From the NCBI GenBank assembly GCA_965204745.1, contig OZ242010.1, positions 448,001 through 512,000 of the forward strand: a stretch of 64,000 nucleotides of DNA. The letters run 5' to 3'. The notes beneath the pieces are model-generated. The model was given only the letters and a program-made list of their open reading frames with translations. It was not told the DNA's origin and did not search any database. This DNA is from Candidatus Latescibacterota bacterium. GTDB taxonomy: Bacteria; Latescibacterota; UBA2968. Within the stretch, counting starts at the first letter, position 1, and each line of letters starts with the position of its first letter. Position numbers and translations under genes: made by a program. Of the stretch, positions 5,081 to 35,775 are shown in pieces.

Positions 5081-5127
5081 TTTTCTCTGTCGGGTTTTGG
5101 GATTATTGACCGGGGACTGACCGCGCA

Positions 5128-6285
5128 CTAAAGACGAGTTGCATCGGCGATGATTGCCTGAATATCCACGACGCCGCACCCCGGCCCTTGCGGGATGCTC
5201 ATTTTGCCATCTCGAATTTCGAGCGCGGGGGTGAACCAATCGCGGTATTTTTCTATGCCTCGTTTGTATTCCTGGTACCGGCCGATAGCCGGCGTTATGG
5301 CGGCAAAGAGGAGCATGTAGATAAACCCGAAGCCGCCCGAGATGTGAACCGTTGTCGGCATGCCGGCCAGGGCGGCCATGCGCGCGACGCGCGACGAGCG
5401 AATCAGGCCGCCGTAATAGTGCAAGTCCGGTTGCACGATGTCCACGCCGCGGTTGGCGATCATCCAGCGAAACCGCCGGTCACTAAATTCCTGCTCGCCC
5501 CCGGAAACCGGAATGTCCAGCGCGTCCGCGACGGCCTTTGTGTCTTCGAGATGGTCAAATGGGCAGGGTTCTTCAAAATACACCGCGCCTATGTCTTCGA
5601 GCATGCGCCCGACTTCAATGGCCTGCGGGGGATCGTAAGAGCTGTTGGAATCCGCGTGAATGTCGATCTCATCGCCCAGGGTTTTGCGGGACAAGGCGAT
5701 CAACTTCGGCGTGCGCCCGGGCATGGCGTCCTCGTTTTTGCTCATGCGCCCGCCGATTCTAAATTTTATGGCCCTCGCGCCCGTCTCGTCGATCAGACGC
5801 TGCAAATAAACCACTTCCTCTTCCGGCGTGCTGTCTCGCCGCCCACTCGCCACGTAAAACGCCGCCTGATCGCGCACTGCGCCGCCCATGAGTTCGGGGA
5901 TGGATTTTCGCGCTACGCGGCCGAGCAAGTCCAACAGGGCCATCTCGACCCAAGCCACGCAACACCAAAATGCCAATCCCTGTAATTTGTAATTGCTTTT
6001 GTGCCGATACACGCCCCACAACAGGTCTTCGAGGTCGCGGGCGTCTTTTCCGATGAAGTAGGGAATGACCAACCGATTGAGGATCGGATGCGCGTATTGC
6101 GCGCGCCCATTGGTGAACGCCAGTCCCTCCGCGCCATCTGTGGAACGGACATGGACGTAGTATTCCCGGTCATCTTTGAGCAGTTGGATGGACGCGATTG
6201 CGACGGGTTCAGTCAGGCCGTCTAATACCAAAACGGGTTTTGCCGCGGCCTCGTCCAGCGCCGCGATACTCGGGGTTGGGGTCAT
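5128..6285 (-). CDS. Mandelate racemase/muconate lactonizing enzyme family (enolase superfamily)
   Basis: KFRIG, HADSNS, YFEEPC, GGEQE, VQPD motifs; GGAGG RBS before ATG 6285. Confidence 0.85.
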   Translation of the reverse strand: MTPTPSIAALDEAAAKPVLVLDGLTEPVAIASIQLLKDDREYYVHVRSTDGAEGLAFTNGRAQYAHPILNRLVIPYFIGKDARDLEDLLWGVYRHKSNYKLQGLAFWCCVAWVEMALLDLLGRVARKSIPELMGGAVRDQAAFYVASGRRDSTPEEEVVYLQRLIDETGARAIKFRIGGRMSKNEDAMPGRTPKLIALSRKTLGDEIDIHADSNSSYDPPQAIEVGRMLEDIGAVYFEEPCPFDHLEDTKAVADALDIPVSGGEQEFSDRRFRWMIANRGVDIVQPDLHYYGGLIRSSRVARMAALAGMPTTVHISGGFGFIYMLLFAAITPAIGRYQEYKRGIEKYRDWFTPALEIRDGKMSIPQGPGCGVVDIQAIIADATRL

Positions 6286-7369: not shown

Positions 7370-9220
7370 TTACGCCTCGTACATTTCGGCGATTTCTTTT
7401 GCAAAAAGCGATTCGATCTTTTTGGGCACGACCTTTTTCAATCCCCGCGTGAGGCTACCCGCTTCTTCGCTCAACTGCGTGGGCAAGACCAACACCCTTT
7501 GCGGACGCTCGTACCCGGGCAGGCCAGCCGCCGCGGCTTCTTTCAACAACTGCTGCCGAACGCGCTCGGCAATTGCGGGGTGGCGGCGCAGGGCGTCCTC
7601 GTCCTTTGTGGGCAAGTCGGGGATATCCGTTTGCAGGGCAGCCTCTTCTGCGTTCACGGTGACGACGGGCAGGGGGAACGTGCGGGTTTGGTCCCCACAG
7701 ATGAGGACGTGCTCGATCAAGGGCACCCGGGCAAAGATGCGTTCCAGCCGCTCCGGATTGACAAACTCGCCATTTTTCAACTTGAACTGCCGGCCCAAGC
7801 GTCCCTGAAAAGTCAAAAATCCGGCGTCGTCCATGCTGAACAAATCCCCCGTGCGGTACCACACCTTGCCCGCGTCGTCGGTGATGAGCACTTCCGCCGT
7901 GCGCTCGGGGTCGTCCAAATACCCGGTCATGACGTGATCGCCGTGGACCCACAATTCGCCGCTGCCCTCGCCGCTGCCGCGATAGGATTCGGTTTTCGGA
8001 TCGCCATGGGCAATTTCCTCGCCCGTCTCGGTGATGATCTTGACTTCTTGCAATGGCTGTCCGACGGTGCCGGTCTTTTGTCCACCGAGCGTATTGGCCG
8101 CGATCAGCGGGCTGCACTCGGTGACGCCATAGCCTTCGAATGAGACGATGTCGAGCACGTCTTGAAAAAAGTCGAGGGCCTCGGGATCGGCCTTTGCCGA
8201 GCCGACGATGAGCAGTTCGAGGCGCGACCCTACGCGCTGTGAGAGCCGCGCTTTAATTTGCCCGACCACCTTTTTGCCCAGCGTGGCATTGACGAGGTGA
8301 TCGATGATCGATGCCTCGCCGCGGGCAATGCGCTGTTTGGCCCGCACGGAGCGCGCGATCAATTTGCCTTTTGCCCCACCCGCTTCAATTTCTTTTCGCA
8401 CATTGCCAAATACTTTGTCCAAAATCAGCGGCACGGTCAAAAACCCGTGGGGTTCGGAATGGCGAATATCCACCAGCACGCGATCTGGCGACCGCGCGAG
8501 ATCCAGGGTCCAGCCCTTTGCCAAGGGAAAGTAAATGTTCAAAATGCCCATCGTGTGATAATCCGGCGCGGACTTGAACAACACCAACTCATCGCGCTCG
8601 CTGATCGTATCCCACACGGATTGGACATTGCCCACGAGGTTGCGGTGCGTTTGAATCACGCCCTTGGGCAATCCAGACGAGCCCGAGGTATAGACGATTT
8701 TCGATTCGTCCTCCGGGACAATGGTCACATCGGGCGGCGGCGAGGTCGCGCCTTGTTGTGCCAACTGAAAAAATGAGAGCGCGTCATCGGCTTGGCCTTC
8801 TGTGAGCACCACTTGCGGGGGATTGTTCAGTTGCTCGCGCACGCGCGCCACCTGTTCCAAACTTTTCGCATCGGCAAACAAATACGCGATGCCCGAGTGG
8901 TTGACGTTGTGGACGAGCAAATCGTCGGGCAACTTGTTGCAGAGAGGCACGGCGGTCAAACCGAGCATATCGCACGCGAGAAAGACCAGCACGGATTCCA
9001 AACCGCCATCGGTCAAAAGCCCGAGACGCTGCCCCTTTTCCAAGCCCAGTTGCGCCAGGCCCGAGGCCAAGCGGTCGCGCTGCTCTTTCACTTGCCGATA
9101 CGTCAACGGCACATAGCGCAAGCCCTTTTCGCCGGGCTGTTCGGACTGGCGCAACACGCGAACAGCCGTGCGCTCGGCATGGCGTTCAAAGCTATTGTTC
9201 AACAAATCCTTCAGTGTCAT
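7370..9220 (-). CDS. Long-chain acyl-CoA synthetase (AMP-binding)
   Basis: YTSGSSGLPKG, EGYGVTE, YRTGD, FKLKNGEFVNP motifs. Confidence 0.88.
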   Translation of the reverse strand: MTLKDLLNNSFERHAERTAVRVLRQSEQPGEKGLRYVPLTYRQVKEQRDRLASGLAQLGLEKGQRLGLLTDGGLESVLVFLACDMLGLTAVPLCNKLPDDLLVHNVNHSGIAYLFADAKSLEQVARVREQLNNPPQVVLTEGQADDALSFFQLAQQGATSPPPDVTIVPEDESKIVYTSGSSGLPKGVIQTHRNLVGNVQSVWDTISERDELVLFKSAPDYHTMGILNIYFPLAKGWTLDLARSPDRVLVDIRHSEPHGFLTVPLILDKVFGNVRKEIEAGGAKGKLIARSVRAKQRIARGEASIIDHLVNATLGKKVVGQIKARLSQRVGSRLELLIVGSAKADPEALDFFQDVLDIVSFEGYGVTECSPLIAANTLGGQKTGTVGQPLQEVKIITETGEEIAHGDPKTESYRGSGEGSGELWVHGDHVMTGYLDDPERTAEVLITDDAGKVWYRTGDLFSMDDAGFLTFQGRLGRQFKLKNGEFVNPERLERIFARVPLIEHVLICGDQTRTFPLPVVTVNAEEAALQTDIPDLPTKDEDALRRHPAIAERVRQQLLKEAAAAGLPGYERPQRVLVLPTQLSEEAGSLTRGLKKVVPKKIESLFAKEIAEMYEA

Positions 9221-9250
9221 CTTCCCTCCTCTTGGACGAGTTTCATCCCA

Positions 9251-9841
9251 CTATTTTTTTTTAATATATCCCTCGGCGACCATCTGTTCAACTAATTCTC
9301 GCACGCAATCCCACAGCATCGGGGCGCCAATGGCGATGTGGCTATTGCTTTGCAACACGCGATCAGCCGCAATTCCGTGTTCTCGCCAAGCGCGCCCACA
9401 GGTGTGGCAATTGTGCAAAAAGGGTTGGATTCGGTCCATCGCCCCTGCAAATTTCGCCTCGGGCGTCTCCTTGGCTTCAAATTCCTCCCACAGCGCGCGC
9501 AATTCCCCGCCTTGTTCTTCGGGCAACAGGGCAAAAATGCGGTCCGCGGCTTTTGCCTCGCGCTCGGCCTTATCCGCCTGGCCCGCTTCGTCGTAGAGAA
9601 ACGTGTCTCCGGCATCGATCTCCACGAGGTCGTGCACCAGGGCCATTTTGATCACTTTGAGCATATCCACCCGCACGGGCGCGTATTCCGCGAGAACAAT
9701 CGCAAACATCGCAAAATGCCACGAGTGTTCCGCGTCGTTTTCCTTGCGCGTCTCATCGAGCAAATAGGTCTGCCGAAAAATCTGCTTGAGTTTATCGACC
9801 TCGAGGAGAAATGCGAGTTGTCGTTGCAAGCGGTCGGTCAT
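9251..9841 (-). CDS. HD domain phosphohydrolase (YfbR/HDDC2-like)
   Basis: ENDAEHSWH, ALVHDLVEIDAGD, EFE...TPEAKFA motifs; start at MTDRLQRQ, since the longer ORF extends into repeat DNA. Confidence 0.85.
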   Translation of the reverse strand: MTDRLQRQLAFLLEVDKLKQIFRQTYLLDETRKENDAEHSWHFAMFAIVLAEYAPVRVDMLKVIKMALVHDLVEIDAGDTFLYDEAGQADKAEREAKAADRIFALLPEEQGGELRALWEEFEAKETPEAKFAGAMDRIQPFLHNCHTCGRAWREHGIAADRVLQSNSHIAIGAPMLWDCVRELVEQMVAEGYIKKK

Positions 9842-9874
9842 TGTGGTGATTCCAAATGAAGGGAGACGTGAGAG

Positions 9875-9971
9875 GGGAGAAGTAACACCCTGTCTGAATC
9901 GCAGATTAAACGGATTACGCGGATTAGGGCACGCAGGTAGAGCAGGGCTACAAAGAGGCAAAGCATGCGCT
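9875..9971 (+). repeat. Dispersed ~97-bp repeat, copy 1 (core GGGAGAAGTAACACCCTGTCTGAATCGC.GATTAAACGGATTACGCGGATTAGGGCACGCAGGTAG)
   Basis: 66-bp core matches 11188..11253 with one mismatch; weaker similarity continues for ~30 bp. Confidence 0.9.
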
Positions 9972-10045
9972 GAAGCGATTTTGTTCATGATGGCGATGGG
10001 TTGGCTGACCACTGACCGCTAACTGCTTGGGGCATGGGGTTGTCC

Positions 10046-10927
10046 CTACGGTTGTGTTTTCACTTTCAGCGCGTTGGGAACGACCTCAACTGTCGCGGGG
10101 GTCTCGCACACGGGTTCGCCGTCGGCAAAGACCCACATGGGATCATCCGCCTCAATCCGCAGGGTCTTGGTTTGCGCGACCTGCACCGCAGGATGACCAA
10201 CGTGCGCGCCAGAATACGCCCGCAACAACAGCCGCAAGACCCGCCAACGCGGCACATCGGACACCCGGCACACATCCAGCACGCCATCATCTAACACGGC
10301 ACTCGGTGCAACTTTGATCCCGCTCCCGTAAAAAGGCGTGTTCGCCGTTGCCGCCAGCAGAACGCGCCCGTCCAAAACGCCAAAATCTCCTGTGAGACGC
10401 ACCAGCGGAGATCGATATTGGCCCAGCGTTTGCAAAATTGCCAGCCCATAAGCCATCGTCCCACCCAATCGCAACGCCTGATCGCGCACCCGTCGCGCCA
10501 CTGCGGTATCGAATCCCAAACTCGCAACGGTCGCAAAGAACCGGCCCCCGATTTTCCCCAGATCCATCGCCCGCACCCGGCCGTGCATCAGCGCATTGAC
10601 AACGCCGTTCACATCCTTGGGCAATCCCAATGCCCGCGCCAAATCATTCCCGCGACCACATGGCACAATGCCCAAAACCGCGCCTGAATGCGCGAGGCCA
10701 TTGATCACTTCGTGGATCGTGCCATCCCCACCACACGCCGCAACCCGTTGCACACCCCGCGCCAATGCTTCCCGCGTCAACCGCTCGCAATCCCCCCGCG
10801 CTTTCGACACCACCAGATCAGCCCCCACCCCGCGCTGCCGCAACTCCCCCACAACCCGCTCCCCCAAGCGCGTTGCCCGGCCGCGCCCCGAACTGGGATT
10901 TGCGATGATCGTCCAATGAGTTGGCAT
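10046..10927 (-). CDS. Diacylglycerol/lipid kinase family protein (YegS/DAGK-like)
   Basis: IIANPSSG, CGGDGTIHEV, GRGNDLAR, YGSG, ADGE motifs; start at MPTHW. Confidence 0.9.
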   Translation of the reverse strand: MPTHWTIIANPSSGRGRATRLGERVVGELRQRGVGADLVVSKARGDCERLTREALARGVQRVAACGGDGTIHEVINGLAHSGAVLGIVPCGRGNDLARALGLPKDVNGVVNALMHGRVRAMDLGKIGGRFFATVASLGFDTAVARRVRDQALRLGGTMAYGLAILQTLGQYRSPLVRLTGDFGVLDGRVLLAATANTPFYGSGIKVAPSAVLDDGVLDVCRVSDVPRWRVLRLLLRAYSGAHVGHPAVQVAQTKTLRIEADDPMWVFADGEPVCETPATVEVVPNALKVKTQP

Positions 10928-10929
10928 GA

Positions 10930-11170
10930 GGCGGTAAGAGGCAAAAGGTGAGACGCAAGACGGGAGAGGCAAGAGGTGGGACGCAAGAGGCAAGAGGCAA
11001 GATGGAAGTTTAGCCACAAAAGGCACAAAAGGCACAAAAGGCACAAAAGGCACAAAAGGCACAAAAGGCACAAAAGGCACAAAAGACATAAAAGACACGA
11101 GCGGGGTACAACTGAAGATAGCCCGTTCAAAGGCGAACCGTGTGTAGGGGCGATGCCCCCGTGCTCGCCC
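10930..11170 (+). repeat. Composite intergenic repeat: GAGAGGC-type 7-mers + (CACAAAAGG)x9 + hairpin module + GTAGGGGCG REP-like unit
   Basis: Nine 9-mers at 11015..11095; the same modules occur at 14664, 30924, 44520 (inverted) and 53992 (inverted). Confidence 0.9.
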
Positions 11171-11187
11171 GAAGATACAAGACGGGA

Positions 11188-11286
11188 GGGAGAAGTAACA
11201 CCCTGTCTGAATCGCGGATTAAACGGATTACGCGGATTAGGGCACGCAGGTAGGGCAGAGGATGCAGAGAGGCGAAGCATGTGCTG
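11188..11286 (+). repeat. Dispersed ~97-bp repeat, copy 2
   Basis: Direct copy of 9875..9971. Confidence 0.9.
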
Positions 11287-11445
11287 TATTTGCGGTGAGC
11301 ACCCGATTCTTGATTGCGTTCGGGGTCAATTGGTTTTCCTGGGTCATCATTGCTCCTCATTAACGTCGCGGGATTGAATAATCGGGTATTGGACATTCGC
11401 TTTTGTCACTGGCAACGACATAGGGGCTGAATGACACGGCGAGGA

Positions 11446-12828
11446 CTAATCCGCGCCCTTGTCTTCGCCGCGAAGGTCGGGGGAGGAGATTGGACGGACA
11501 TCCGTTTCGATGGGATTGGGGGCCGCGATCTGTTGCTCGTCAACCGTTGCGCCGAGGTCTTCCAAGCGTCGCGCTTGCACGAGGACGCGCCTCTCAAGCG
11601 AACCAATACTATCGTTGTAGCAAGTCACGGCTTTATGCAATGCCTTGCCGACCTCGCCGACATGACCGCCGTAGGTCCGAATGCGGCCGTAGAGTTCCCC
11701 TGCGGCTTGGGCGATCTTTTCGGCATTTTCCTGAACTTTGGCTTGTTGCCAGCCGATAGCGATGGTGCGGAGTAGCGCGATGAGCAGGCCGGGCGTTGCG
11801 ATGAGGACGCGGTGTTGCTTCCAAGCGTCGTCCCATACGCCCACCTTGGCACGCTCGGCAGCGTCGAGGATGGCGTCGTGTGGAACGTACATCACGGCAA
11901 AGTCGAATGACCCGGGAATCGAACTTGTGTACTCGCGGCCTGAGAGTTCCTTAGCGCGTGCGGCGAGCGCATCGGCATGGCGGCGGAAATGCGTCTGCTG
12001 TTGCCGAGGGTCTTCTGTCTCGAACGCGTCGAGGTAGGCGTCCATCGGCGCCTTGGCGTCAACCACGATCTGCTTGTCGCCGGGGATCGTAACCACCATA
12101 TCGGGGCGAAGGCGTCGTCGGTCTGTGCCTACCGAAGGTTGCTCTATGAACTCGACATGTTCGAGCATGCCCGCGGCTTCAACGACCCGGCGCAGTTGCT
12201 GTTCTCCCCAGTCTCCGCGTTCGCGCGTGGAGCGTAAGGCACGGTGCAACTGATTGGTTTCGCTACGGAGTTGGATGATTTCTCGTCGCGCTTGTTTAAC
12301 AGCTTCATGCACCTGCACATAGGCGCCCTCGCGTTCCCGTTCGATTTCGCCGACGTGCTTTTGCAATTTTTCGAGCGTTTCGCCGACGGGTTTAACGAGA
12401 TTGTCAACGGCGATCTGGCGGGACTCGAGATCTTTGTCCGACAACTCGCGCTGGCGTTTGAACGCTTCCTGTGCCTGCTTGCGAAATTCCTCGCTCGTGT
12501 CTTGCACAACCTGCGACGCGATGCCCTTGAAATGCGTGTCGAGTTGCTCCTGCGTCCGCTTCATCTCTTCTTGCCTCGTCTGATCCTCGGCACGTACCTT
12601 GGCGAGTTCTTGAGTTGTAGTCGATAGTTTCTCGCTGACTTCTGCCAAGCGTTTCTGGGCTTCATCTCGCTGGCTGGTGCGTTCTTCAAGTGCGATGCTC
12701 CGTTCGGCGAGTTGGACTTGCAGGTTCTTCAACTCGTCTGCGTCGGCCATGTTGTACTTCCGTGCGACGGTGAAGGCTATACCAAACCCGGCGAGTAGCC
12801 CTACGATGAGTGCGACAACGATCTCCAT
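11446..12828 (-). CDS. rmuC: DNA recombination protein RmuC
   Basis: N-terminal TM helix, coiled coil, RGDWGEQQLRRVVEAAGM, RPDMVV, VVDAKAP, IATPGLLIALL. Confidence 0.92.
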   Translation of the reverse strand: MEIVVALIVGLLAGFGIAFTVARKYNMADADELKNLQVQLAERSIALEERTSQRDEAQKRLAEVSEKLSTTTQELAKVRAEDQTRQEEMKRTQEQLDTHFKGIASQVVQDTSEEFRKQAQEAFKRQRELSDKDLESRQIAVDNLVKPVGETLEKLQKHVGEIEREREGAYVQVHEAVKQARREIIQLRSETNQLHRALRSTRERGDWGEQQLRRVVEAAGMLEHVEFIEQPSVGTDRRRLRPDMVVTIPGDKQIVVDAKAPMDAYLDAFETEDPRQQQTHFRRHADALAARAKELSGREYTSSIPGSFDFAVMYVPHDAILDAAERAKVGVWDDAWKQHRVLIATPGLLIALLRTIAIGWQQAKVQENAEKIAQAAGELYGRIRTYGGHVGEVGKALHKAVTCYNDSIGSLERRVLVQARRLEDLGATVDEQQIAAPNPIETDVRPISSPDLRGEDKGAD

Positions 12829-12984
12829 TGAGGAATCTCCTTTCTGTTGGCGTCTCGCATTTCCCCTAAGATCACTTGTTGCAACAGTCGAACTTGGGGA
12901 CTAAGACCACTTTGGGGTTACGCAAGAGCGTGAGTTGTTGAGGGGGTTGGCTCGTTCTGATTTTTTGTTTTTATGACGGCCTTC

Positions 12985-13797
12985 TTACAATTCGGGTGGC
13001 GAGTCGTGGTCTTTCATTTTTCGCTTCACCAGCCATTCGACGATTTTGGGATGGATCAGTTGTAGCCACGGGAGGGTGCGGAGTTTCCAAGGGATCACGA
13101 GTTCGCGCTTTTGTTTTTGCATGGCGGTCAAAATGGCCTCGCAACACTTCTTGACGGGAATCGCCTCTTTGGTATGGTGCTGTGAGGCCGCGCCGCGGGC
13201 CGCACCATCTTTGCCCAGCGCGCCTTGTCGCAAATTCGTGCCCTGAAGCCAGTGCGGCAAGACCGTCAAGATATGCATGTCAGGGACTTCCATTTGCAGG
13301 GCTTTCAGAAAGCCCAACACCGCGTGCTTGGACGCCGCGTACCCCGTGTGCAGGGGCACGCCGATCTTGCCTTGCACAGACGCAATGCCCACCAGCATGC
13401 CCTTGGACGCGGTCATATATGGCAATGCCGCATGCGCGCAATAGACCAAACCGAGGTAATTGGTCTCCATCAATTTGCGAAACACGCCCATATCTTCCAC
13501 CTCGTCAAACCGCGCCCACATGCTGATCCCGGCATTGGCGATCAAAAAATCGATGCGGCCAAATTCCGCTATGGCTACATCGACCAAGCGCGCGCAATCT
13601 TCCACCCGCGTGACATCGCCGGGCACGGGGACCACGCGCACGCCGCACGCCCGACATCGATCCGCTGTCTCGCCGAGCATTGCCTCGCGCCGCGCAAACA
13701 GCACCAAGTGCGCGCCGCGTTTTGCCAGTGCCAGTGCCAATGCGGCCCCCAGCCCGGAAGACGCGCCCGTAATGATTGCAACTTTATTGCGAAACAT
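12985..13797 (-). CDS. SDR family oxidoreductase (DHRS7B-like; candidate acyl/alkyl-DHAP reductase)
   Basis: TGASSGLG, NAG, YAASKHA; the specific substrate is inferred from context only. Confidence 0.85.
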   Translation of the reverse strand: MFRNKVAIITGASSGLGAALALALAKRGAHLVLFARREAMLGETADRCRACGVRVVPVPGDVTRVEDCARLVDVAIAEFGRIDFLIANAGISMWARFDEVEDMGVFRKLMETNYLGLVYCAHAALPYMTASKGMLVGIASVQGKIGVPLHTGYAASKHAVLGFLKALQMEVPDMHILTVLPHWLQGTNLRQGALGKDGAARGAASQHHTKEAIPVKKCCEAILTAMQKQKRELVIPWKLRTLPWLQLIHPKIVEWLVKRKMKDHDSPPEL

Positions 13798-14110
13798 CGC
13801 GCCTTTCTATCTTAAAGGTCGTGCGCCCCAAGTGCTCGAGTGCGCGTTCAAAGCTGACGAGGCGGCGGATGAGGCTATTGTAGCGGGAATGCGTATCTCG
13901 GGGATAGCGCGCGCCGAGGGCCTCGTAGAGTGCGCGTTCAGGATGATCGGGCAAATCCGGCGCGTGGGGAATCTCCAAACCCGCGGCGCGCAACCGCGGC
14001 GCGCCAATGGCGACGAGCAAGGCTTCCACTGTGATCTCGCCGCGTTTTAATGCTTCAATACCCGATAGCACGAGATCCGCGCCGGGGAGATTTTCCGGTA
14101 CTTTGGTCAT
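13784..14110 (-). CDS. Hypothetical protein, partner of the upstream nucleotidyltransferase
   Basis: 108-aa ORF coupled to the upstream gene by an ATGA overlap. Confidence 0.65.
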   Translation of the reverse strand: MTKVPENLPGADLVLSGIEALKRGEITVEALLVAIGAPRLRAAGLEIPHAPDLPDHPERALYEALGARYPRDTHSRYNSLIRRLVSFERALEHLGRTTFKIERRDVSQ

Positions 14111-14640
14111 CGCGCCTCCAGTGCGATTGTTGCTTTTTGCACCTTCTCGCGGAAGGACGCGGCGTCAATCGCGGGATAACGCACGAGATCCGGCGCAATG
14201 GCAGTGAAGAGCGCGGGCAGGCGCGTCGGGTCGATCAATCGCGCCCTGTACATCGCTTCCACATCGCGCAAATCCCGTTCATGACCGCGCTCGATTTTGG
14301 CGAGTGCCTGGGCGTAAAAGTCGTAATGAAAAAAATTGATCGGCCCATGCTGGTCGATGAATGCGCTGCGCTCTCGCCAGTTGGGAAGAGGAGGAATGAA
14401 GTCGTCGGGCGCCGCCAGTTCGACATTGATGTTCAAAGCATGCTTGGCGCGTGCGATAGCGTCGAAAACACCTGCGGGTTCCGGGGCGAGTTTGAGGTCG
14501 ATGTCCATCGTGGTCATTCGCCATCCGATCAGCACTGCCGAACTCCCGCCGACGAGATAAATCCGGCCTTCGCCTCGCGCCTCCGCGCCGAGATACCGCA
14601 TGAATTTCCGCACTTTCGCGGCATCGGTCATTTCCCGCAT
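14107..14640 (-). CDS. DUF6036-like nucleotidyltransferase
   Basis: IYLVGGSSAVL...TMDIDL (GG...DxD NTase motif), KIERGHERDLRD. Confidence 0.75.
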   Translation of the reverse strand: MREMTDAAKVRKFMRYLGAEARGEGRIYLVGGSSAVLIGWRMTTMDIDLKLAPEPAGVFDAIARAKHALNINVELAAPDDFIPPLPNWRERSAFIDQHGPINFFHYDFYAQALAKIERGHERDLRDVEAMYRARLIDPTRLPALFTAIAPDLVRYPAIDAASFREKVQKATIALEAR

Positions 14641-14663
14641 GGTAGTGTCCATTCATCTATAAT

Positions 14664-14835
14664 GGAAGTTTAGCCACAAAAGGCACAAAAGGCACGAGCG
14701 GGGTACAACTGGCGACAGCCAGTTCAAAGGTGAGCGATGCGTGTAGGGGCGGTGCCTCCGTGCCCGCACAATATCAAAATCAGTAGTCAGTGGTCAGTAG
14801 TCAGTGGTCAGTGGTCAGTGGTCAGTGGTCAGTAG
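14664..14835 (+). repeat. Composite repeat: (CACAAAAGG)x2 + AACTGGC-GCCAGTT hairpin + GTAG REP-like unit + (TCAGTRG)x8
   Basis: Same modules as at 10930; eight 7-mers at 14780..14835. Confidence 0.88.
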
Positions 14836-14948
14836 GTTGTGTTGACATTTGCGAGCAAAGCAACTGGCTTGAGCGGTTTATCGAGAAAATCAAGCCCTAT
14901 CGCAGAATATGCTCTCGGTTTGAGAAACTGGAATAGTCGCTCCTTATC

Positions 14949-15141
14949 GGGACCTACCCCCCTAGCCCCCCTTCCTGCGAGGAAGGGGGGAACTGTGAGC
15001 GGTTTTGCGAGGAGGGGATTGATGAGGGTATTTAATCGCTTTATGCCCTCGCAAAACGCCATCAGAGCAACCAGAGCGATAAGCCATCAAAGGAGCTTTA
15101 CTCCCCTTTCCTCGTAGGAAAGGGGCCGGGGGATAGGTCCC
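14949..15141. repeat. REPIN/MITE-like element with ~40-bp imperfect palindromic inverted ends
   Basis: GGGACCTACCCCCCTAGCCCCCCTTCCTGCGAGGAAGGGGGG (14949..14990) matches the reverse complement of 15101..15141. Confidence 0.7.
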
Positions 15142-15268
15142 CTCGCGCAACGCCATCAGAGCAACCTAAGCCATCAAAGGACCAAACGCCTTAAGTCAGC
15201 AAGCAACCCATTTGCTACTCTGTGCGTAACGTAAAAAAATAAAATGTCAACACGACCTTAATTCGTTT

Positions 15269-17098
15269 TCACTGTCCAAACGCGCCGTTGCCGATGGCGA
15301 AGATGTTGTTGGGGTCCATTGCCTTTTTCATCTGTTGCAGGACCGCGATGCTGTTTTCACTTTGGATTTGCGGCAAAAAGCCCCTGCGGAGTTTGCCTAT
15401 GCCGTGGTGGTGGGACAGGGAGCCGCCGCGGTCCAAAATTTCTTGGCGCAAGGCGTGCTCGATCTCGTGATAAACGCCCACGGCATCTGCAAGGCCCTGC
15501 CCGCAAAAGCCCATCGTAAAATAGATGCACACGCCCGTGTGGTAGGTCTGCGTCACGCGGTAGGCCAGATAGGGTTTGCCCGGGATGCCGTGCTTGTCGT
15601 GCAACGCGGTCAGGGTCGTTTCCACCGCGCCGATCACCTCGTGGATATTCGTCCACGGCACAGAAGTCTCAAAGGTCTCGCCCAAGATGTGAAACTGGCT
15701 GAAAAAATCGCGGATATACGCGATCCCAAACGTCAGCATATACCCGCGCTTGCCATTGCTCGCGCCGCCCGAAATCCCGCCGAATTGCTTCGCCAATTTG
15801 AAAATCGTCTTCGCCTGTTGCCGGACCTCGGCTTTGCTGCCCTCCATCACAACCGTACACGCCACCACCTGCTCGAGATCAAAGCCCTTGAGCTTGAACA
15901 GGAAAAACCGCTGAATCCCCTGCTCGACCTTCTTCAATCCGGTTGCCGCGGGCTTCAATGCCTGTCCAAAGCGAAACTCCGTGTTGTTCAGCAGGCGAAT
16001 GCTCGCGGGAATCTGTCCGGTCTGCCGCAGGGCTTTGAGATAGGCCACACCGCGTTCAAACGACGGAAACACCAGCGAGCCAAATCGCTGCGCTTCGGGC
16101 TGTTTGTGGATTTTGATCGTGGCGCGGGTGATGATCCCCAAATTGCCCTCGCTGCCAAACAAAAAGGATCGGGGTTGCACGCCTGTGGAATTGCGCGGCG
16201 TCGCGTGGCGCGTCTCGACCTCGCCGGTGGGCGTCACCAACTTGGCTTCCAGCACGATATCCTCGATATTGCCGTAGCGGTTCTTTTTCATGCCGCTGGC
16301 ATGGGTCGAAATCCACCCGCCCAGAGTCGAAAACTCCAAACTGTCCGGATCGTGCCCGGACGTGTAGCCCCGGTCATTGAGCACTCGCTCCAACTGCTTG
16401 CCGGAAATGCCCGCCTCCACGCACGCCTGCAAATTCTCCTCGTCCAACCACACCACGCGATTCATGCGCCGCATATCCACCGACGCGACCATCCGCTTTT
16501 CCGAAGGCGGAATCGCCAGCGCGCCGCTCACATTCGTCCCCCCGCCGTAGGGCACGAGCACCACATCATGCGCGTTTGCAAGGTGGATAATCTGCTGTAC
16601 ATCGGCCTCGCCCTGTGGAAACAGCACCACATCCACCAAGCGGTCCGGGAGGCGATGGTACAGAATTTGGTATACCTCATCCACGCTCAACTGCCCGTGG
16701 CTGTGCGTCAAACGCACGCGGTCGGTTAGCGAAACGCACTCCTCTGAAAGCACCTCGCGCACCGCATCTAAAAAACCCGCGTTTGCAATGGGCGCGGGCA
16801 AATCCCGGTGTTCGACCTCTTGCCCTATGTCTTCGGGGCGGATCGGCACGTCGATCACCTCTTCGACAAAGGGCAAAAAATACGGCATCTGATAGCCGCA
16901 CAGCGGGTACCGCGTGCCGGTCACATGCACGGTTCTGTCATCGTCAAATTCAAACCGCGTATCCGCATAGCCCCACTTGTGGTCGAACTGCTCGCCCTCT
17001 GCCCGATCAAAAAAATCGCCCTCCCGCGCATCAGCACGCCCCCATCGCATCAGCAAAAACACCAGCACCAACAACGCGACAAGCGTCAATTCAATCAT
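15269..17098 (-). CDS. Alkyl-dihydroxyacetonephosphate synthase (AGPS/ADPS-like FAD-linked enzyme)
   Basis: KWGYAD, PYGGGTNVS, GHDPDSLEFSTLGGWISTHASGMKKNRYGNIED, ETFETSVPW, RVTQTY...CIYF, GSLSHHHGIGKLR closely match eukaryotic AGPS motifs; N-terminal hydrophobic helix; RBS before ATG 17098. Confidence 0.9.
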   Translation of the reverse strand: MIELTLVALLVLVFLLMRWGRADAREGDFFDRAEGEQFDHKWGYADTRFEFDDDRTVHVTGTRYPLCGYQMPYFLPFVEEVIDVPIRPEDIGQEVEHRDLPAPIANAGFLDAVREVLSEECVSLTDRVRLTHSHGQLSVDEVYQILYHRLPDRLVDVVLFPQGEADVQQIIHLANAHDVVLVPYGGGTNVSGALAIPPSEKRMVASVDMRRMNRVVWLDEENLQACVEAGISGKQLERVLNDRGYTSGHDPDSLEFSTLGGWISTHASGMKKNRYGNIEDIVLEAKLVTPTGEVETRHATPRNSTGVQPRSFLFGSEGNLGIITRATIKIHKQPEAQRFGSLVFPSFERGVAYLKALRQTGQIPASIRLLNNTEFRFGQALKPAATGLKKVEQGIQRFFLFKLKGFDLEQVVACTVVMEGSKAEVRQQAKTIFKLAKQFGGISGGASNGKRGYMLTFGIAYIRDFFSQFHILGETFETSVPWTNIHEVIGAVETTLTALHDKHGIPGKPYLAYRVTQTYHTGVCIYFTMGFCGQGLADAVGVYHEIEHALRQEILDRGGSLSHHHGIGKLRRGFLPQIQSENSIAVLQQMKKAMDPNNIFAIGNGAFGQ

Positions 17099-17180
17099 TG
17101 TTTTTCTCCTCATTAAAATGACAACCGCATCCGATTTGTGAGTTCGCGTCTTTGACCTTCATCGCTCGGTTTTTCTCTCG

Positions 17181-18107
17181 TCAAATTTCGGGCGTGTTTT
17201 CATGACGTTCCGCATATTCTCTCGCTTGAATTGGGTCGTCCGCGTTCTTTTGCAATGAACGTTTGAAGAGCGCGATCTCTTTATCTATATCCCCCAAATC
17301 TTCGATATCCTCTCCGCGGGCGGCTTTGAGATGGAGGTTCAGGGCGTATTCGCAACACTGTGCGATGTATGTGATAAACTCGGTCAAATCTTCGGTTCTA
17401 TCGGCACGCGCCAACGCGCTGATGTATCGATCTCTTTCCTCAATGGGGATTAGAGCCACGGTGTATCCGTGTTTGATCAAGATCATATTCATCAAAAGCC
17501 GCGCCATGCGGCCATTCCCATCGTCGAAAGGGTGGATGCGGACAAAGCGGTAGTGAAACGCAGCAGCGATGACAATGGGATGCTCGCCCTCGGTTTCTCG
17601 CCTTCTGTACCAATCTAAGAGATCGCTCATCGCGGGTTTTACTCGGTCTGGCGGCGTAAAATAATACGTCTCATCGGTAGCGGTTCGCACATTGTTGGGC
17701 CGCGTCTTGTAGCTTCCAATGGCAATGCGTCGCTTTACGTGCTGCCCATCAGGCGTTATCGCGTCGTTTTTGTAAGGCTCTTTTAGCAATACTTTATGCA
17801 GATTGCGGATGAAAACCTCGTTGAGTGCCTCGTCTTTTTTTGCGGCTTCCTCGATGGCTTTGACCGCATCGTCGTGACCTTGGATATCCAGATGATCGCG
17901 CATGGATTTCCCGTGGGCGGTGAGGCCATGGAGAATCAGGCTTTTCGTTTCTCCGAGGGTTAGGCTGTTGCCCTCTACGGCATTGGAGTGATAATTCGAC
18001 TCGATCCTGAGCTTTTGCTCTATCCGTCTGATGACCTCGAGAGGCAATGGTCGCAAAGCGTCCAACTGCTTTTTCAACCGATCAATTTTTTCGATGGGGT
18101 TGCTCAT
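17181..18107 (-). CDS. Fic family protein (class II, with N-terminal inhibitory motif)
   Basis: HPFDDGNGRMAR Fic motif; SNAVEGN inhibitory (S/T)xxxE(G/N) motif. Confidence 0.9.
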   Translation of the reverse strand: MSNPIEKIDRLKKQLDALRPLPLEVIRRIEQKLRIESNYHSNAVEGNSLTLGETKSLILHGLTAHGKSMRDHLDIQGHDDAVKAIEEAAKKDEALNEVFIRNLHKVLLKEPYKNDAITPDGQHVKRRIAIGSYKTRPNNVRTATDETYYFTPPDRVKPAMSDLLDWYRRRETEGEHPIVIAAAFHYRFVRIHPFDDGNGRMARLLMNMILIKHGYTVALIPIEERDRYISALARADRTEDLTEFITYIAQCCEYALNLHLKAARGEDIEDLGDIDKEIALFKRSLQKNADDPIQAREYAERHENTPEI

Positions 18108-18135
18108 AGCTTGTCCTTTCGCTACTCGGGGGTTT

Positions 18136-20091
18136 TCAGCGTTCTTCCGGATTGAGCAGGGTGGCGATGTGGATGGCTTGGAACAGGGCCGCGGCTTCGG
18201 ATTGGATCCGCAGGGAGCGTCTTTTGGGCAACAGGGCCGTTTCCCCGAGCATGGGCGGGGAGACGCACACATCGACTCGGCCTGGGTTGATGTCGATATT
18301 GCCCTTTGGGCACTTGGGCCACAGCGCGTGCAGGCCGCGGTACGCGATAGGCACGATCACCACGTCTTGGGGCAGTTGGGCGAACACCCCGTGCTGGAGT
18401 GGAAATTGTTGAATGGCAAAGGCCGCGGTCGTCGCCATGGGGTAAATCACGCCCGGTCGATCTGCCAAGGCGTGGGCAACGCGCTGTGTGGTATGGCCCG
18501 CGGCGTGGGACCGCTCGAGCATCACGTACCCATCGACAGTCTCCAAAATCTCGTCAAATGCCTCGGAGGTCATCCCGAATTGCGTGATCTGTTTGGACCC
18601 GATCTTAATGCCCGAACGCGCCAGCCCGGTCCGCGCCAAAATCACGCACGGCTCGGGCCTGTCCCAACCCATAGCGTCCAAAAACGCGGGGGACTGCAAC
18701 ACCTCGTACAAAACCGGATGGTCGAACAAACTCTGATGCGTGGGCAAAAAGATGAGCCGCTGATTTTCCCCGGTGGCCCGCAGTGCGCGCATCACGGCTT
18801 CAAACTGCGGGTCGATCAACACATTGACCCGAATATCGAAAATCCCCAGCGTGCGATGCCCCCAATCGAGCCAGGCGCGCCACCCGGCTTCGCGGCGATG
18901 AATCGGGTCATCGCCTTTGTGCAGCAACTTCTTTTTGCGATGCCCGGTCCGAAGCGAAACCGCCATCCACTTGGCAAACCGCAGGCCGCGTTGCCATTTT
19001 GAAAACTGGGCACTGCGTCCGACATCGGGATATTCCAAAAAGCGTCCGCGTGTTGGAGTTGCGAGCAGCGGGGGCGTTTGCACGGGCGAAATGTCTTGCG
19101 ATGCGCGCTGGATTTGCGCGTTGACCGCGCGGATGAGTTGTGCGGACAGGTCGATCATATCCCGCGTCAAATAGCTGTACTCCTGCCCGTACCAATACAA
19201 CTTGGGCCGCAACTTGGTGGGGTCTTCCTGATGGGCAGATAAAAATTCGATCAACAATGCCTGGGCGCGGGCGATGTCATCGGCGATCCCCTGCAAACCG
19301 GACTCGGCAACCGCGCCGTGCAACCGCGCCAACGCCACCTCGGCATCGGCGATCACCTTCCACACGGACACCCCGAACCAGCCGAAGTTCGTCAGATAAT
19401 TGTAGCGCGTTGCCAGCAAGCCCCCGGCCGCGATCAAATTGAGGGTGCGCTGGGCGACATCTTGTAGCAAATCGCGCAACCTGCCCGTCACGCGCTCGCC
19501 ATCTGTATCGCAGACATAGACCTCGGCCCAATGCGCGTCATCGTCTAGCACCACATCCCCGAGCACCTCGGCGACTGCGCGGGCGTGCGACATCGGCACC
19601 TGCGTGATATGCACATGCGCGAGGGCCTCCTCCACGGCTTCGGGCGCGTGCAACTCCTCTTCGGCCAGTGCTTTCAAGTACAGGGATTGGTACAATTTCA
19701 AAAAATCTCGCGCATCGCCATGGCCCCGCGAGACGAATCGCGCCTTGAGTTGCAAATACATCTGCGTCCCCGCGTGGTATTGCGGCAACAAATCGGCGAC
19801 TGGGCGATACGCCTCGAGCAGCCGTTCATCGCGAATCGCGGGCAGGCCGCGAAAAATCGCATCCACAATTTGCGCGCGAAATTGCAATGCCTTCAAGTCC
19901 ATGCCCCCGCGCTGGGTTTTCGGCCAGACAGCCGGCGCGTCAAAGTCGTCAAAATAGCCATCGTGCGCGATGGCTTCGAGCATGCGCTGCACGGACTGGT
20001 CGTAAATCGCCCGCATCTGATCGGCGTCGTCGAGCAGGGTTTCGTGCAGGGGGCGAGGGTCTGATTTGTCGCGTGTCAGCATGGCGATCAA
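18136..20091 (-). CDS. PlsC-superfamily acyltransferase with long N-terminal extension (candidate DHAP acyltransferase)
   Basis: C-terminal PTHQSLFD (HxxxxD), VIYPMAT, IVPIAYRG. Confidence 0.7.
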   Translation of the reverse strand: MIAMLTRDKSDPRPLHETLLDDADQMRAIYDQSVQRMLEAIAHDGYFDDFDAPAVWPKTQRGGMDLKALQFRAQIVDAIFRGLPAIRDERLLEAYRPVADLLPQYHAGTQMYLQLKARFVSRGHGDARDFLKLYQSLYLKALAEEELHAPEAVEEALAHVHITQVPMSHARAVAEVLGDVVLDDDAHWAEVYVCDTDGERVTGRLRDLLQDVAQRTLNLIAAGGLLATRYNYLTNFGWFGVSVWKVIADAEVALARLHGAVAESGLQGIADDIARAQALLIEFLSAHQEDPTKLRPKLYWYGQEYSYLTRDMIDLSAQLIRAVNAQIQRASQDISPVQTPPLLATPTRGRFLEYPDVGRSAQFSKWQRGLRFAKWMAVSLRTGHRKKKLLHKGDDPIHRREAGWRAWLDWGHRTLGIFDIRVNVLIDPQFEAVMRALRATGENQRLIFLPTHQSLFDHPVLYEVLQSPAFLDAMGWDRPEPCVILARTGLARSGIKIGSKQITQFGMTSEAFDEILETVDGYVMLERSHAAGHTTQRVAHALADRPGVIYPMATTAAFAIQQFPLQHGVFAQLPQDVVIVPIAYRGLHALWPKCPKGNIDINPGRVDVCVSPPMLGETALLPKRRSLRIQSEAAALFQAIHIATLLNPEER

Positions 20092-20104
20092 CTTTCTTTT
20101 GCGG

Positions 20105-21766
20105 TCAGCGATTCGCGCGGGTGGGCCGTTCAGGTGGCGTCGATGGCTTTTGCCCCTTCATAGCCGCGGCTGTTTTGAGCACATGGCGTTGCAGGCCGGG
20201 AATGTGGATCTCTTTGAGGTAACGGGGCCAATCGATGCGCGAGACATCGCAGTTGAAAATTTCTTGGTCCTCTGCGTCCATGTCGTTGAACAGGCGGGTC
20301 ATATTCTCGTTTTGAAACACGCAATCGAGAGACATATAAGACGTGTAAATGTCGGTGAGGGACAGGGTATTTTCCAGCGTGGCGTTCAGGATGGACAGGT
20401 GGCGTTTCTTTTTGGAAACGTCGATGAGCGGCACGCGGTCGAGTGCCCACTGCGCCATCTTGATGGGCAACTGATAGCGGTAGCGCAACTTGCGGCGGAA
20501 CTGCGGCAGGGTGGGATAGGTCCACGGCGCCACCGCGATGGGGTTGCCCTGCCGGTCACGCATGGGATTTTCCACAAAATACTCGTGGACATACTGGACG
20601 ACCTCGCCCAAGGTCACGGGATTGCGCGCGCCTGTGGTGACGTGATAAACCCGCAACTCGGATGATGCTTTGACCGCGGGCAAAACCCCGATGATCGCGT
20701 TGATGATGATATCCACGGGGATAATGTCTAAAATCGTTTCTGGGCGCGCCGGGAAATCCGTCAACCGCCCCTTGCCGTAGTGGACGATGATCGGATCCGC
20801 CACCTTGAGGCCCTCCAGCCAGCCGGGCTCGGGGTCGGACAAACTGCTTTCGATAATCGACGGGCGGACGATCACAGTCGGCAACTTGCCCCGCATTTTG
20901 GCGATTATCTGCTCGCCCATGGCTTTGGTAAAAGAATAACTGTCGTGCCAGCCCAATTCGCGGCCGCGCTGCATGCCCCGCGCCACCATGTGGTCGCGCA
21001 CCCAGCGTTGGCGCAGGGCCTCGAGTTGGTGTTCGCGCCTGTGGGCGGTCACGCGCTTGCCCCGGTCCTGTTTGTCGAGCAAGCGCGTAAATTCGGCGAA
21101 CCGCTCGGGCCGCCGAGACGCGGCCTCGGTCTCTTGGCTATACGCCAAAATGCTTTCGATCTCCGCATCCAACTCGTAGTTGAGCGCACGCCCATCGCCC
21201 ATCAGGTGCGCCACGGTTTGATCGGGTATGGGCGCGTCTTCGGAAATGATCCCCTTTTGCCTGCCGTTGACGTAGGCGGTCGAAACGTGGACGAGCACCG
21301 CGTCGCTGCACGCCTTGGCAAACTCGACGATCCGCATCGCGCCCAGGGTGTTTTGCGTCAGCGCGAAATCCAGCGGCTCGTCGAACACCACTGTGGCCGC
21401 GCTGTTGATCACGATATCGACTTCGCGGGTCAACCGTGCGTATGTTTCCGCGTCCATGCCCAAGCGGTCTTTTGACAAATCGCCCGGCACAGCCACGAGT
21501 TTTTCGCGCATCACCGCGTTGAACCGATCCCCGAGTTCGGCGCGCAATCGCGCAAACGCATTGGATTGCAACACCTCGCGGTCGAGGCGATCCGCCACGC
21601 TGATCGGCTTGCCCGCCCCTCGGCTTCGCGGGCGCACCATCAGATAGACGCGCCCCACATCCGGCGCGTGGCGGAGAATTTTTTCCACCGTGCCCTTGCC
21701 CAAAAAACCCGTTGCACCCGTGACGAACAGCACCTTGCGGCTCAAAAATGGAATGACGACGCTCAT
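20105..21766 (-). CDS. Fatty acyl-CoA reductase (alcohol-forming FAR; NAD_binding_4 + Sterile domain)
   Basis: VTGATGFLGK, SAATVVFDEPL, HVSTAYV, YSFTKAMGE, IVRPSII, IDWPRYL. Confidence 0.9.
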   Translation of the reverse strand: MSVVIPFLSRKVLFVTGATGFLGKGTVEKILRHAPDVGRVYLMVRPRSRGAGKPISVADRLDREVLQSNAFARLRAELGDRFNAVMREKLVAVPGDLSKDRLGMDAETYARLTREVDIVINSAATVVFDEPLDFALTQNTLGAMRIVEFAKACSDAVLVHVSTAYVNGRQKGIISEDAPIPDQTVAHLMGDGRALNYELDAEIESILAYSQETEAASRRPERFAEFTRLLDKQDRGKRVTAHRREHQLEALRQRWVRDHMVARGMQRGRELGWHDSYSFTKAMGEQIIAKMRGKLPTVIVRPSIIESSLSDPEPGWLEGLKVADPIIVHYGKGRLTDFPARPETILDIIPVDIIINAIIGVLPAVKASSELRVYHVTTGARNPVTLGEVVQYVHEYFVENPMRDRQGNPIAVAPWTYPTLPQFRRKLRYRYQLPIKMAQWALDRVPLIDVSKKKRHLSILNATLENTLSLTDIYTSYMSLDCVFQNENMTRLFNDMDAEDQEIFNCDVSRIDWPRYLKEIHIPGLQRHVLKTAAAMKGQKPSTPPERPTRANR

Positions 21767-21901
21767 AAAAAACTCCGGCAATGGGGGGAATGGAGAACGA
21801 AAAACCGCGTCCAAAAGCGACTCAATAAAAGGCGTCTATCGGGCATGTGTCAACCCCTTTCTCGCACGGGGATAAGGAGCAAACCCTTGCCAAAAATGGG
21901 G

Positions 21902-28488: not shown

Positions 28489-28503
28489 AATGGCGGAGGC
28501 CTT

Positions 28504-28746: not shown

Positions 28747-28765
28747 CCTTAAAAAAGGAACTCCC

Positions 28766-28948: not shown

Positions 28949-29012
28949 TCGCCTCCTGACCGGTGGACGATGCTATCTCGCATCGTCAGTGCAACCCTCT
29001 TCAGAATTGCTT

Positions 29013-31110: not shown

Positions 31111-31146
31111 TTTGAATATCCCCTAAACTTTTTTTGAGGTTGTAAA

Positions 31147-34188: not shown

Positions 34189-34213
34189 TTTGCTTGACTA
34201 ACCACTGACCACC

Positions 34214-35769: not shown

Positions 35770-35775
35770 TTGGAA

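Follow-up and report, generated by a model that had tools for sequence, protein, structure and literature searches.

The 64,000-nucleotide (nt) stretch of DNA analysed here as a whole, hereafter the window, covers positions 448,001 to 512,000 of contig OZ242010.1 of a Candidatus Latescibacterota bacterium (G000:C1:448001-512000), whose genome (G000) is a single contig of 5.48 Mb and is 97.65% complete. It contains a real and conserved group of lipid genes that is, judging from the sequences, very probably an ether-lipid cluster. Genes were called from a list of open reading frames (ORFs) together with Pfam and NCBIfam scans, and PADLOC was also used for the inserted genes. A preliminary description of this DNA had singled out six lipid genes, and all six were recovered, co-oriented on the minus strand:

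20105-21814, minus strand: fatty acyl reductase (FAR), with NAD_binding_4 and Sterile domains; likely start ATG at 21766
18136-20091, minus strand: acyltransferase (AT) of 651 amino acids (aa), with an HxxxxD motif and a predicted PlsC/GPAT fold; likely start ATG at 20082
15269-17113, minus strand: alkyl-dihydroxyacetonephosphate synthase (AGPS, EC 2.5.1.26), a flavin adenine dinucleotide (FAD) enzyme; match to PDB 4bby_A at 5.3e-152
12985-13797, minus strand: classical short-chain dehydrogenase/reductase (SDR), candidate reductase of acyl/alkyl-dihydroxyacetone phosphate (DHAP); adh_short 7.4e-46
10046-10927 (ORF to 11098), minus strand: YegS/DAGK-family lipid kinase, with DAGK_cat and YegS_C domains
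7370-9220, minus strand: AMP-binding acyl-CoA synthetase-like ligase (ACS); AMP-binding 1.3e-61

As had also been described, these genes are separated by a Fic-domain gene, a nucleotidyltransferase (NTase) gene pair, rmuC, an HD-domain gene and repeats. The order of transcription is FAR, AT, Fic, AGPS, DUF6036 NTase, its 108-aa partner, SDR, RmuC, kinase, HD_3 and ACS.

By its sequence matches the FAD enzyme is identified as a genuine AGPS, as first proposed, and not as a D-lactate/glycolate dehydrogenase; a grouping with the latter was checked and not seen. It aligns over residues 45-606 (562 residues, including the AGPS N-terminal region) with the solved peroxisomal AGPS 4bby_A at 510.9 bits and with a second solved AGPS, 2uuu_A, at 298.9 bits, whereas the best non-AGPS chain in PDB, a D-lactate dehydrogenase, reaches 88.6 bits. 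In one alignment block with 4bby_A, 44 of 103 columns are identical, and other blocks appear higher; this is a block count and not an overall identity. Residues R373, Y531 and H568-570, which do not vary among 14 aligned bacterial homologues, line up with R419, Y578 and H615-617 of 4bby_A, which we take to be the AGPS active-site residues Arg419, Tyr578 and His615-617 of the guinea-pig numbering. Pfam returned FAD_binding_4 (1.3e-37) and FAD-oxidase_C (8.6e-37), and the NCBIfam model GlcD stayed below its cut-off (160 against 567.9 bits). Homologues are very common: 4840 proteins passed E <= 0.001 among 8000 scored candidates, some already named AGPS by JGI. According to the part of PMC13012113 cited here, AGPS carries too little phylogenetic signal.

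The FAR protein matches NAD_binding_4 (5.4e-66, 222.8 bits) and Sterile/FAR_C (8e-15, 55.2 bits), both over the Pfam cut-offs, and contains TGATGFLGK and YSFTK, presumably the TGxTGFLG nucleotide motif and the YxxxK motif. Its domains bear out the earlier identification and predict an alcohol-forming reductase of fatty acyl-CoA or acyl-acyl carrier protein (acyl-ACP) with a eukaryote-like architecture. The SDR scored 283.5 bits with NCBIfam NF004825 (cut-off 215), and its PDB neighbours are generic classical SDRs at 78-104 bits. The kinase matches DAGK_cat (1.6e-32), YegS_C (4.3e-37) and TIGR00147, the YegS/Rv2252/BmrU lipid kinase model (173.8 bits, cut-off 118.65).

The AT contains the sequence LPTHQSLFDHP, an HxxxxD motif (H452-x4-D457) in which, across 14 sequences, H452 is invariant and the residue at +5 is D or E. 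It has no Pfam match even at E <= 10 and no NCBIfam match. Searching PDB sequences with the single protein gave one chance match (E 0.73), and a 14-sequence profile gave none at E <= 5. Among 1.84 billion cluster representatives a profile search recovered 61 proteins at E <= 0.001. Seven of these are of full length, with 607-665 aa, and the others are fragments; none of the 61 is fused to another domain. PF01553 appears at the expected place, below threshold, in six of the seven full-length representatives (11.7-15.1 bits, cut-off 23), and the family seems in this sense faintly visible to Pfam yet not called. An AlphaFold model built from the 14 sequences (pLDDT 74, pTM 0.78) had only PlsC/GPAT proteins among its top six Foldseek matches. 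With VIA-align the model was superposed on PlsC 5kym_B (Z 13.9, root-mean-square deviation (rmsd) 3.5, 218 aligned), on human GPAT1, 8e4y (Z 10.7, rmsd 5.2, 225 aligned), and on the plastid GPAT entries 8ia1, 1iuq and 1k30 (Z 10.3-10.5). All of these superpositions fall on model residues ~364-650.

When the AT profile was compared with single PlsC-type proteins by hhalign, only faint matches emerged (E 0.056 and 0.0033, probabilities 1% and 10%), which inform on motif register only. In this weak alignment the HxxxxD motif, the EGTR position and the VPV motif line up with those of the PlsC of the same genome, HxxxxD lying opposite NHRSLVD. Long helices make up the N-terminal ~360 residues (residues 1-363 folded alone, pLDDT 80). 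In a comparison of this part with 48,161 chains the best matches were 8ub3_A, which is a designed helical filament (Z 10.3, rmsd 3.8, 141 aligned), and 3o3x_A, which is a helical bundle (Z 9.0), a type of result that is uninformative for helical proteins. Motif and modelled fold together identify the AT as a putative divergent acyltransferase with a helical N-domain (~1-360) and a PlsC/GPAT-fold C-domain (~364-650). Elsewhere in the same genome (G000:C1:2436193-2436348) there is a fragment of 52 codons that shares 90% identity with AT residues 381-432.

One genome per species was scanned for related loci, and the best 80 of 507 confirmed AGPS loci were compared with the window proteins by tblastn. 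Labels among these loci include Latescibacterota, Gemmatimonadota and Trueperaceae, the close relatives being Latescibacterota. FAR and AT lie directly upstream of AGPS on the same strand in 27 of the 80 loci (26 of the 65 with at least 4 kb of sequence upstream), and the whole series FAR-AT-AGPS-SDR keeps this order along a single strand in 26 of those same 65 loci (27 of 80 overall). FAR is directly upstream of AT in every one of the 27 loci holding an AT, with gaps of 9-340 nt, and the gaps from AT to AGPS are 21-219 nt, a tight packing in most relatives. An SDR match occurs in 65 of the 80 loci (63 of the 76 with at least 1 kb downstream of AGPS), within 700 nt in 56. The kinase follows the SDR in 12 of 80 loci, and in 11 of the 24 FAR and AT loci with at least 4 kb downstream, which supports its earlier placement with the lipid genes; in the genome G082 it is followed by an ABC ATPase and not by HD.

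The arrangement of the cluster is beyond chance, and we rejected a chance neighbourhood, gene order being conserved across many genomes. FAR, AT, AGPS and SDR are linked across several phylum labels, which settles in favour of the preliminary description the question of linkage in relatives that it had raised. By the same counts five of the six genes form the conserved set and ACS stands outside it. We therefore rejected ACS as a cluster member: its orthologues (85-93% identity) lie hundreds of kb or more from the cluster in all four same-genus genomes, and it was found by tblastn in none of the 80 loci. Its inclusion was an error of the first description, the gene being a chance neighbour in this genome only.

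Loci without FAR and AT have unrelated genes upstream of AGPS, save exceptions. In a Neomarinimicrobiota locus (L040, 8054-9976) AGPS is preceded by a gene of the HMG-CoA-reductase family and by a PF01553 acyltransferase of 248 aa. In a Planctomycetota locus (L080, 11803-19608) AGPS is followed by a 2601-aa polyketide synthase-like protein with AMP-binding, KS, DH, KR, ACP and NAD_binding_4 terminal reductase domains.

The inserted genes have a different distribution. Neither Fic nor HD_3 was found in any of the 80 related loci, and RmuC was found in L001 only. The DUF6036 NTase lies between AGPS and SDR in four (L001, L002, L007 and L060) and also in G091, the closest relative, and homologues of the 108-aa partner occur in five (L001, L002, L007, L009 and L060). 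From these counts the inserts are lineage-specific. The Fic gene of the window is present only in G091, where it is split by a rearrangement.

The distribution of these genes in the phylum was assessed in 168 genomes including G000, of which 132 (again with G000) belong to the families f1-f4 and 36 to other families. Presence was called at E <= 1e-60 for AGPS and FAR, at E <= 1e-20 for AT, and over the PF02504 cut-off for PlsX. AGPS was found in 125 genomes (124 of the 132 and one of the 36), AT in 132 (130 and two) and FAR in 131 (128 and three). PlsY (PF02660) was found in 29 of the 168, none in f1-f4 and 29 of 36 in the others, and PlsX (PF02504) in 34, namely one in f1-f4 (G145) and 33 of 36 in the others. 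GPAT_C (PF19277; PlsB/GPAT1/GNPAT-type) had no match in any of the 168 (0/132 and 0/36). AGPS and AT occur together in 123 genomes, AGPS alone in two (75% and 78% complete), AT alone in nine, and neither in 34; a single AT-positive genome out of 132, G034, has PlsY. The distribution of AT is thus the mirror image of that of PlsX and PlsY, a clean pattern which, the genomes being kin, represents few independent events. This pattern, together with the orphan character of the AT, is the most interesting aspect of the cluster.

The same was seen in the genome of the window, where 14 control genomes set the scale for each search. PlsY was not found there with PF02660 (control positive in 8 of 14 genomes), PlsX was not found (9 of 14) and GPAT_C was not found, its control being positive in E. 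coli alone. One PF01553 (PlsC-type) gene only, a 276-aa open frame, was detected (control positive in 10 of 14). The control genomes of Bacteroides thetaiotaomicron and Corynebacterium glutamicum were also without a PF02660 match. Six kb from the ether-lipid genes the window has a fab cluster (27982-37069; yceD at 27982, fabH at 28929, then fabD, fabG and fabF), and no plsX was seen between yceD and fabH; we take the usual place of plsX to be ahead of fabH. A narrow search of the literature on Latescibacter and plsY, including the consulted part of PMC6431249, found no discussion of an absence of PlsY.

We consider it likely that the conserved core of FAR, AT, AGPS and SDR, usually with the YegS-type kinase, encodes the DHAP (AGPS) route to 1-O-alkyl-sn-glycerol-3-phosphate. 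This reading is built on families, fold, motifs, synteny and co-distribution, from which we infer the catalytic steps, substrates and products alike. FAR would reduce acyl-CoA or acyl-ACP to a fatty alcohol, and the PlsC/GPAT-fold AT would acylate DHAP at sn-1 to give acyl-DHAP. AGPS, a flavoenzyme, would then exchange the acyl chain for the fatty alcohol, creating the ether bond of alkyl-DHAP, whose C2 keto group the SDR would reduce to yield 1-alkyl-glycerol 3-phosphate (G3P). The lone PlsC-type enzyme encoded elsewhere could acylate sn-2, after which ordinary head-group enzymes would finish plasmanyl phospholipids, and the kinase would probably return alkyl(acyl)glycerols to the phosphorylated pool.

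Within this scheme the AT is a candidate DHAP, perhaps also G3P, sn-1 acyltransferase, DHAP being suggested by its adjacency to AGPS and by the lack of any other candidate. The SDR, from its synteny and co-distribution, appears functionally coupled to AGPS and is a candidate acyl/alkyl-DHAP reductase, and the kinase is, from its family, a candidate alkylglycerol or alkylacylglycerol kinase. All of the computational evidence (a genuine AGPS, linkage and co-distribution) agrees with the original proposal that this organism makes 1-O-alkyl glycerolipids by the AGPS route, the chemistry being deduced from that evidence. CarF/PEDS1 (PF10520) had no match in the genome of the window, a result that says nothing on plasmalogens since the control was silent in all 14 genomes.

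Several observations weigh against this reading. Motif III of the AT reads YPM[GA]TT where canonical enzymes have EGTR, xEGTR being the phosphate/glycerol-binding consensus, and this deviation, with the missed PF01553 cut-off, weakens the prediction of the acceptor substrate. FAR and AT occur without an AGPS orthologue (best AGPS matches of 27-31% identity) in four nearly complete genomes, G008 (99%), G037 (96%), G039 (95%) and G153 (93%). None of the four has an SDR match at E <= 1e-30, so that the SDR tracks AGPS whereas the AT does not depend on it and would have an AGPS-independent role. The acyltransferase of the preliminary description is borne out in its motif and has a GPAT-type modelled fold, but it is not a simple GNPAT counterpart. 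In f4, the largest family, the AT stands alone, unlinked from AGPS-SDR. In G091, whose AGPS is 92% identical, the cluster is split inside Fic and its genes are scattered: the part at 0.77 Mb (L089, G091:C1:758000-777999) holds Fic residues 54-345 together with AGPS and the NTase pair, the part at 0.88 Mb (L090, G091:C1:866000-884000) holds FAR, AT and Fic residues 2-47, and the SDR is found at 4.72 Mb. In the genome of the window the five insertions may disturb co-transcription of the cluster. Finally, loss of the AGPS gene lowered ether lipids only slightly in Myxococcus xanthus, according to the cited portion of PMC9131029.

Two further arrangements were seen in genomes touched on above. In most f4 genomes the segment that best matches FAR (34-44% identity) is part of an ORF of about 1400 aa (for example G138:C1:4625621-4627246), possibly an ElbD-like multidomain protein. 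In G008 (L083, G008:C2:366000-382000) and G037 (L084, G037:C1:187000-205000) a cluster without AGPS and SDR comprises FAR, AT, a HAD protein (PF12710), a 397-aa zinc-dependent alcohol dehydrogenase (Zn-ADH), a 515-aa Lar_N-domain protein and a YegS-type kinase, and in G037 an AMP-binding ligase is found upstream of FAR.

It is quite credible, though short of probable, that the AT is chiefly a general sn-1 acyltransferase for all glycerolipids, acting on G3P, DHAP or both and replacing PlsX/PlsY, with AGPS-SDR as one branch from it and the cluster not a dedicated ether-lipid unit. Dual G3P/DHAP acyltransferases exist in yeast. The mirror-image distribution across the phylum speaks for such a role, as do the single PF01553 gene and the lack of PlsY, PlsX and GPAT_C in the genome of the window and the persistence of the AT where AGPS and SDR are absent. 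Against this, the kin genomes are not independent and perhaps only two or three evolutionary events underlie the pattern, some other unrecognised acyltransferase may exist, and the lack of PlsY is shared by B. thetaiotaomicron and C. glutamicum. Moreover, FAR always adjoins the AT where the latter is beside AGPS, which fits a dedicated fatty-alcohol/acyl-DHAP pair. In the four families f1-f4, to which the window belongs, the AT may be the sole first acyltransferase of membrane-lipid synthesis.

We regard it as improbable that FAR and AT form a wax-ester (or other neutral fatty-alcohol-ester) pair, with FAR supplying the alcohol that the AT esterifies, while AGPS-SDR are fed acyl-DHAP from elsewhere. 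The FAR-AT link is the tightest of the cluster, both genes occur in the four genomes without AGPS, and motif III differs from the glycerol-phosphate-binding consensus, all of which would suit such a pair. However, no other candidate DHAP acyltransferase is apparent in a genome with one small PlsC-type gene, and the distribution of the AT is complementary to that of PlsY. In addition, three forms of acyltransferase precede AGPS, namely the AT, the 248-aa PF01553 protein of the Neomarinimicrobiota locus and the Myxococcus FARAT fusion, the last as given in the excerpted text of PMC9131029.

The idea that the FAD enzyme is an ordinary 2-hydroxyacid (D-lactate/glycolate) dehydrogenase in a chance lipid-like neighbourhood broken by mobile DNA is very hard to sustain and was rejected: Pfam does show only the generic domains, GlcD does give a sub-threshold score and five insertions do break up the cluster, but the AGPS scores (511 against 89 bits) and the gene order kept across many genomes already contradict it, the residues we take to be specific to AGPS are kept and the core ORFs are intact.

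The preferred reading, the DHAP (AGPS) route, has a close precedent in the MXAN_1676-1674 operon of M. xanthus. There, in the part of PMC9131029 used here, MXAN_1676 is an AGPS about 42% identical to the human enzyme, MXAN_1675 a fusion of a FAR with a GNPAT-like domain and MXAN_1674 a member of the NAD-dependent epimerase/dehydratase family. AGPS is thus combined in one operon with a reductase that forms fatty alcohols, an sn-1 acyltransferase and a further reductase, for the same proposed DHAP chemistry, and by analogy the cluster of the window can be viewed as a split-gene variant of it. The differences are that FAR and AT are separate genes in the window and fused in MXAN_1675, and that the reductase is a classical SDR where MXAN_1674 belongs to the epimerase/dehydratase family (MXAN data as excerpted from the same paper). 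Furthermore, the AT belongs, as judged by family scans and not by direct alignment, to a small isolated family with a 360-aa helical N-domain that PF01553 does not detect, and the gene order is FAR-AT-AGPS-SDR, often with a YegS-type kinase attached.

The mammalian peroxisomal pathway of FAR1, GNPAT, AGPS and a reductase (PexRAP/DHRS7B, EC 1.1.1.101) has, in the cited passages of PMC9131029 and PMC3520006, the same order of enzymes, with FAR and acyltransferase likewise two proteins. The window resembles it also in its AGPS, with 510.9 bits over 562 residues, and in the NAD_binding_4 plus Sterile architecture of its FAR. It differs in that the bacterium has no organelle and in that the AT is not a recognisable GNPAT. 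The myxobacterial elbABCDE genes (the ElbD pathway) likewise make bacterial alkyl ethers. However, the window cluster lacks a HAD, LarA-like or multidomain ElbD gene, and the ether bond is here assigned to AGPS. The accessible part of a preprint (bioRxiv 10.64898/2026.06.23.733905) reports that elb and agps are found together in some phyla, Latescibacterota among them.

As far as the cited sections of PMC13012113 go, FARAT fusions supply both substrates of AGPS, an arrangement that the FAR-AT pairing in the window mirrors. They also state that eukaryotic FARAT derived from myxobacteria and that separate FAR and GNPAT are, among eukaryotes, a holozoan trait. Since FAR and acyltransferase are separate in the window, as in animals, the cluster bears on the debate over bacterial donors of eukaryotic ether-lipid genes that is treated in those sections. 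Latescibacterota and Gemmatimonadota are unnamed in the main text of that paper, in so far as it was consulted, and its supplementary datasets may hold such sequences.

AGPS itself is not new to the phylum. The consulted part of PMC11868695 gives Agps homologues in 67 of 92 Black Sea Latescibacterota metagenome-assembled genomes, and the bioRxiv preprint cited above, in its accessible part, reports AGPS homologues in sponge-symbiont Latescibacterota. The claim of a complete eukaryote-type ether-lipid cluster in a bacterium therefore stands as to the cluster, which is real, and overrated its novelty, since the M. xanthus operon of AGPS, FAR, GNPAT-like and reductase genes and the AGPS of Latescibacterota were already published, as the cited extracts of PMC9131029 and PMC11868695 indicate. 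In the portions of the ether-lipid literature cited here we found no description of a FAR-AT-AGPS-SDR-kinase operon or of the AT family.

Ether lipids of aerobic and facultative bacteria are geochemical markers whose genetic basis is partly known. The cluster offers a compact set of four or five genes for the AGPS route outside myxobacteria, with a candidate bacterial alkyl-DHAP reductase (the SDR), a candidate alkylglycerol kinase and, in the AT, an acyltransferase family missed by standard annotation. If the AT were the sole sn-1 acyltransferase in bacteria without PlsX, PlsY and PlsB, this would be an unusual start of bacterial phospholipid synthesis.

More tentatively, and as something we would sooner doubt than expect, a class-level branch of Latescibacterota may have lost PlsX/PlsY (PlsB was not found in the phylum) and may start all its membrane glycerolipid synthesis with the orphan PlsC-fold AT, probably via acyl-DHAP as peroxisomes do. 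If so, the ether lipids made through AGPS would no longer count as a side product but would belong to the bulk of the membrane, and FAR-AT would be a portable module docking onto either AGPS-SDR or a HAD/Zn-ADH/LarA-like module that resembles elb. In that case the YegS-type kinase attached to the cluster would be a bacterial alkylglycerol kinase. As of 2013 this activity (EC 2.7.1.93) was still counted among the orphan enzymes, with no animal gene known for it, according to the cited part of PMC3520006.

The remaining features of the cluster region are the inserts and repeats:

17181-18272, minus strand: Fic-domain protein, insert between AT and AGPS; Pfam Fic 8e-22; PADLOC PDC-S04 and SoFic
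14107-14652, minus strand: DUF6036 nucleotidyltransferase, insert, first of a gene pair; Pfam DUF6036 7.3e-09
13784-14110, minus strand: 108-aa NTase partner, insert; overlaps of 4 and 14 nt with the adjacent genes
11446-12828, minus strand: RmuC, insert between SDR and kinase; Pfam RmuC 4.3e-86
9251-9841 (ORF to 10012), minus strand: HD_3 phosphohydrolase (YfbR-like), insert; HD_3 2.8e-55
10933-11260, no strand: intergenic repeats, consisting of 14/28-nt and 9-nt (CACAAAAGG x9.3) tandem arrays and a dispersed element of ~90 nt

The core ORFs (FAR, AT, AGPS, SDR and kinase) are all five intact, none having been harmed by the later insertion of Fic, the NTase pair, RmuC, HD and the repeats. The longest Fic reading frame overlaps the 3′ end of AT, and the 108-aa partner had no Pfam, NCBIfam or PADLOC match. 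The kinase and HD ORFs run 5′ into translated repeats, and translation probably begins at M58 in each, at 10927 for the kinase and at 9841 for HD. Residues 1-57 of the kinase ORF, which to 11098 crosses the tandem repeats, are repeat-derived.

Related repeat copies are found at 9864-9945 and 14654-14833, with a 7-nt TCAGTGG x7.7 array too, and like the copy at 10933-11260 they are located at borders of inserted genes. The segment 11100-11260 of the window has 54 listed matches across the same genome and looks REP- or MITE-like. The region resembles a hotspot of defence and mobile genes, with Fic (SoFic/PDC-S04), RmuC, a transposase and flanking restriction-modification genes. The latter are hsdM (1256-2689) with hsdR (2702-5239) on one side and hsdM (22423-24432) with hsdS (24312-25814) on the other, and a DDE transposase lies at 26142-27155. 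Located 3′ of ACS are Ldh_2, an MR_MLE enolase-superfamily gene and hsdR. A low-GC insert (43% GC, strong GC skew) breaks up the fab cluster itself and carries a DNA methylase-HNH fusion (31147-32625) and an unassigned ORF (32697-33647).

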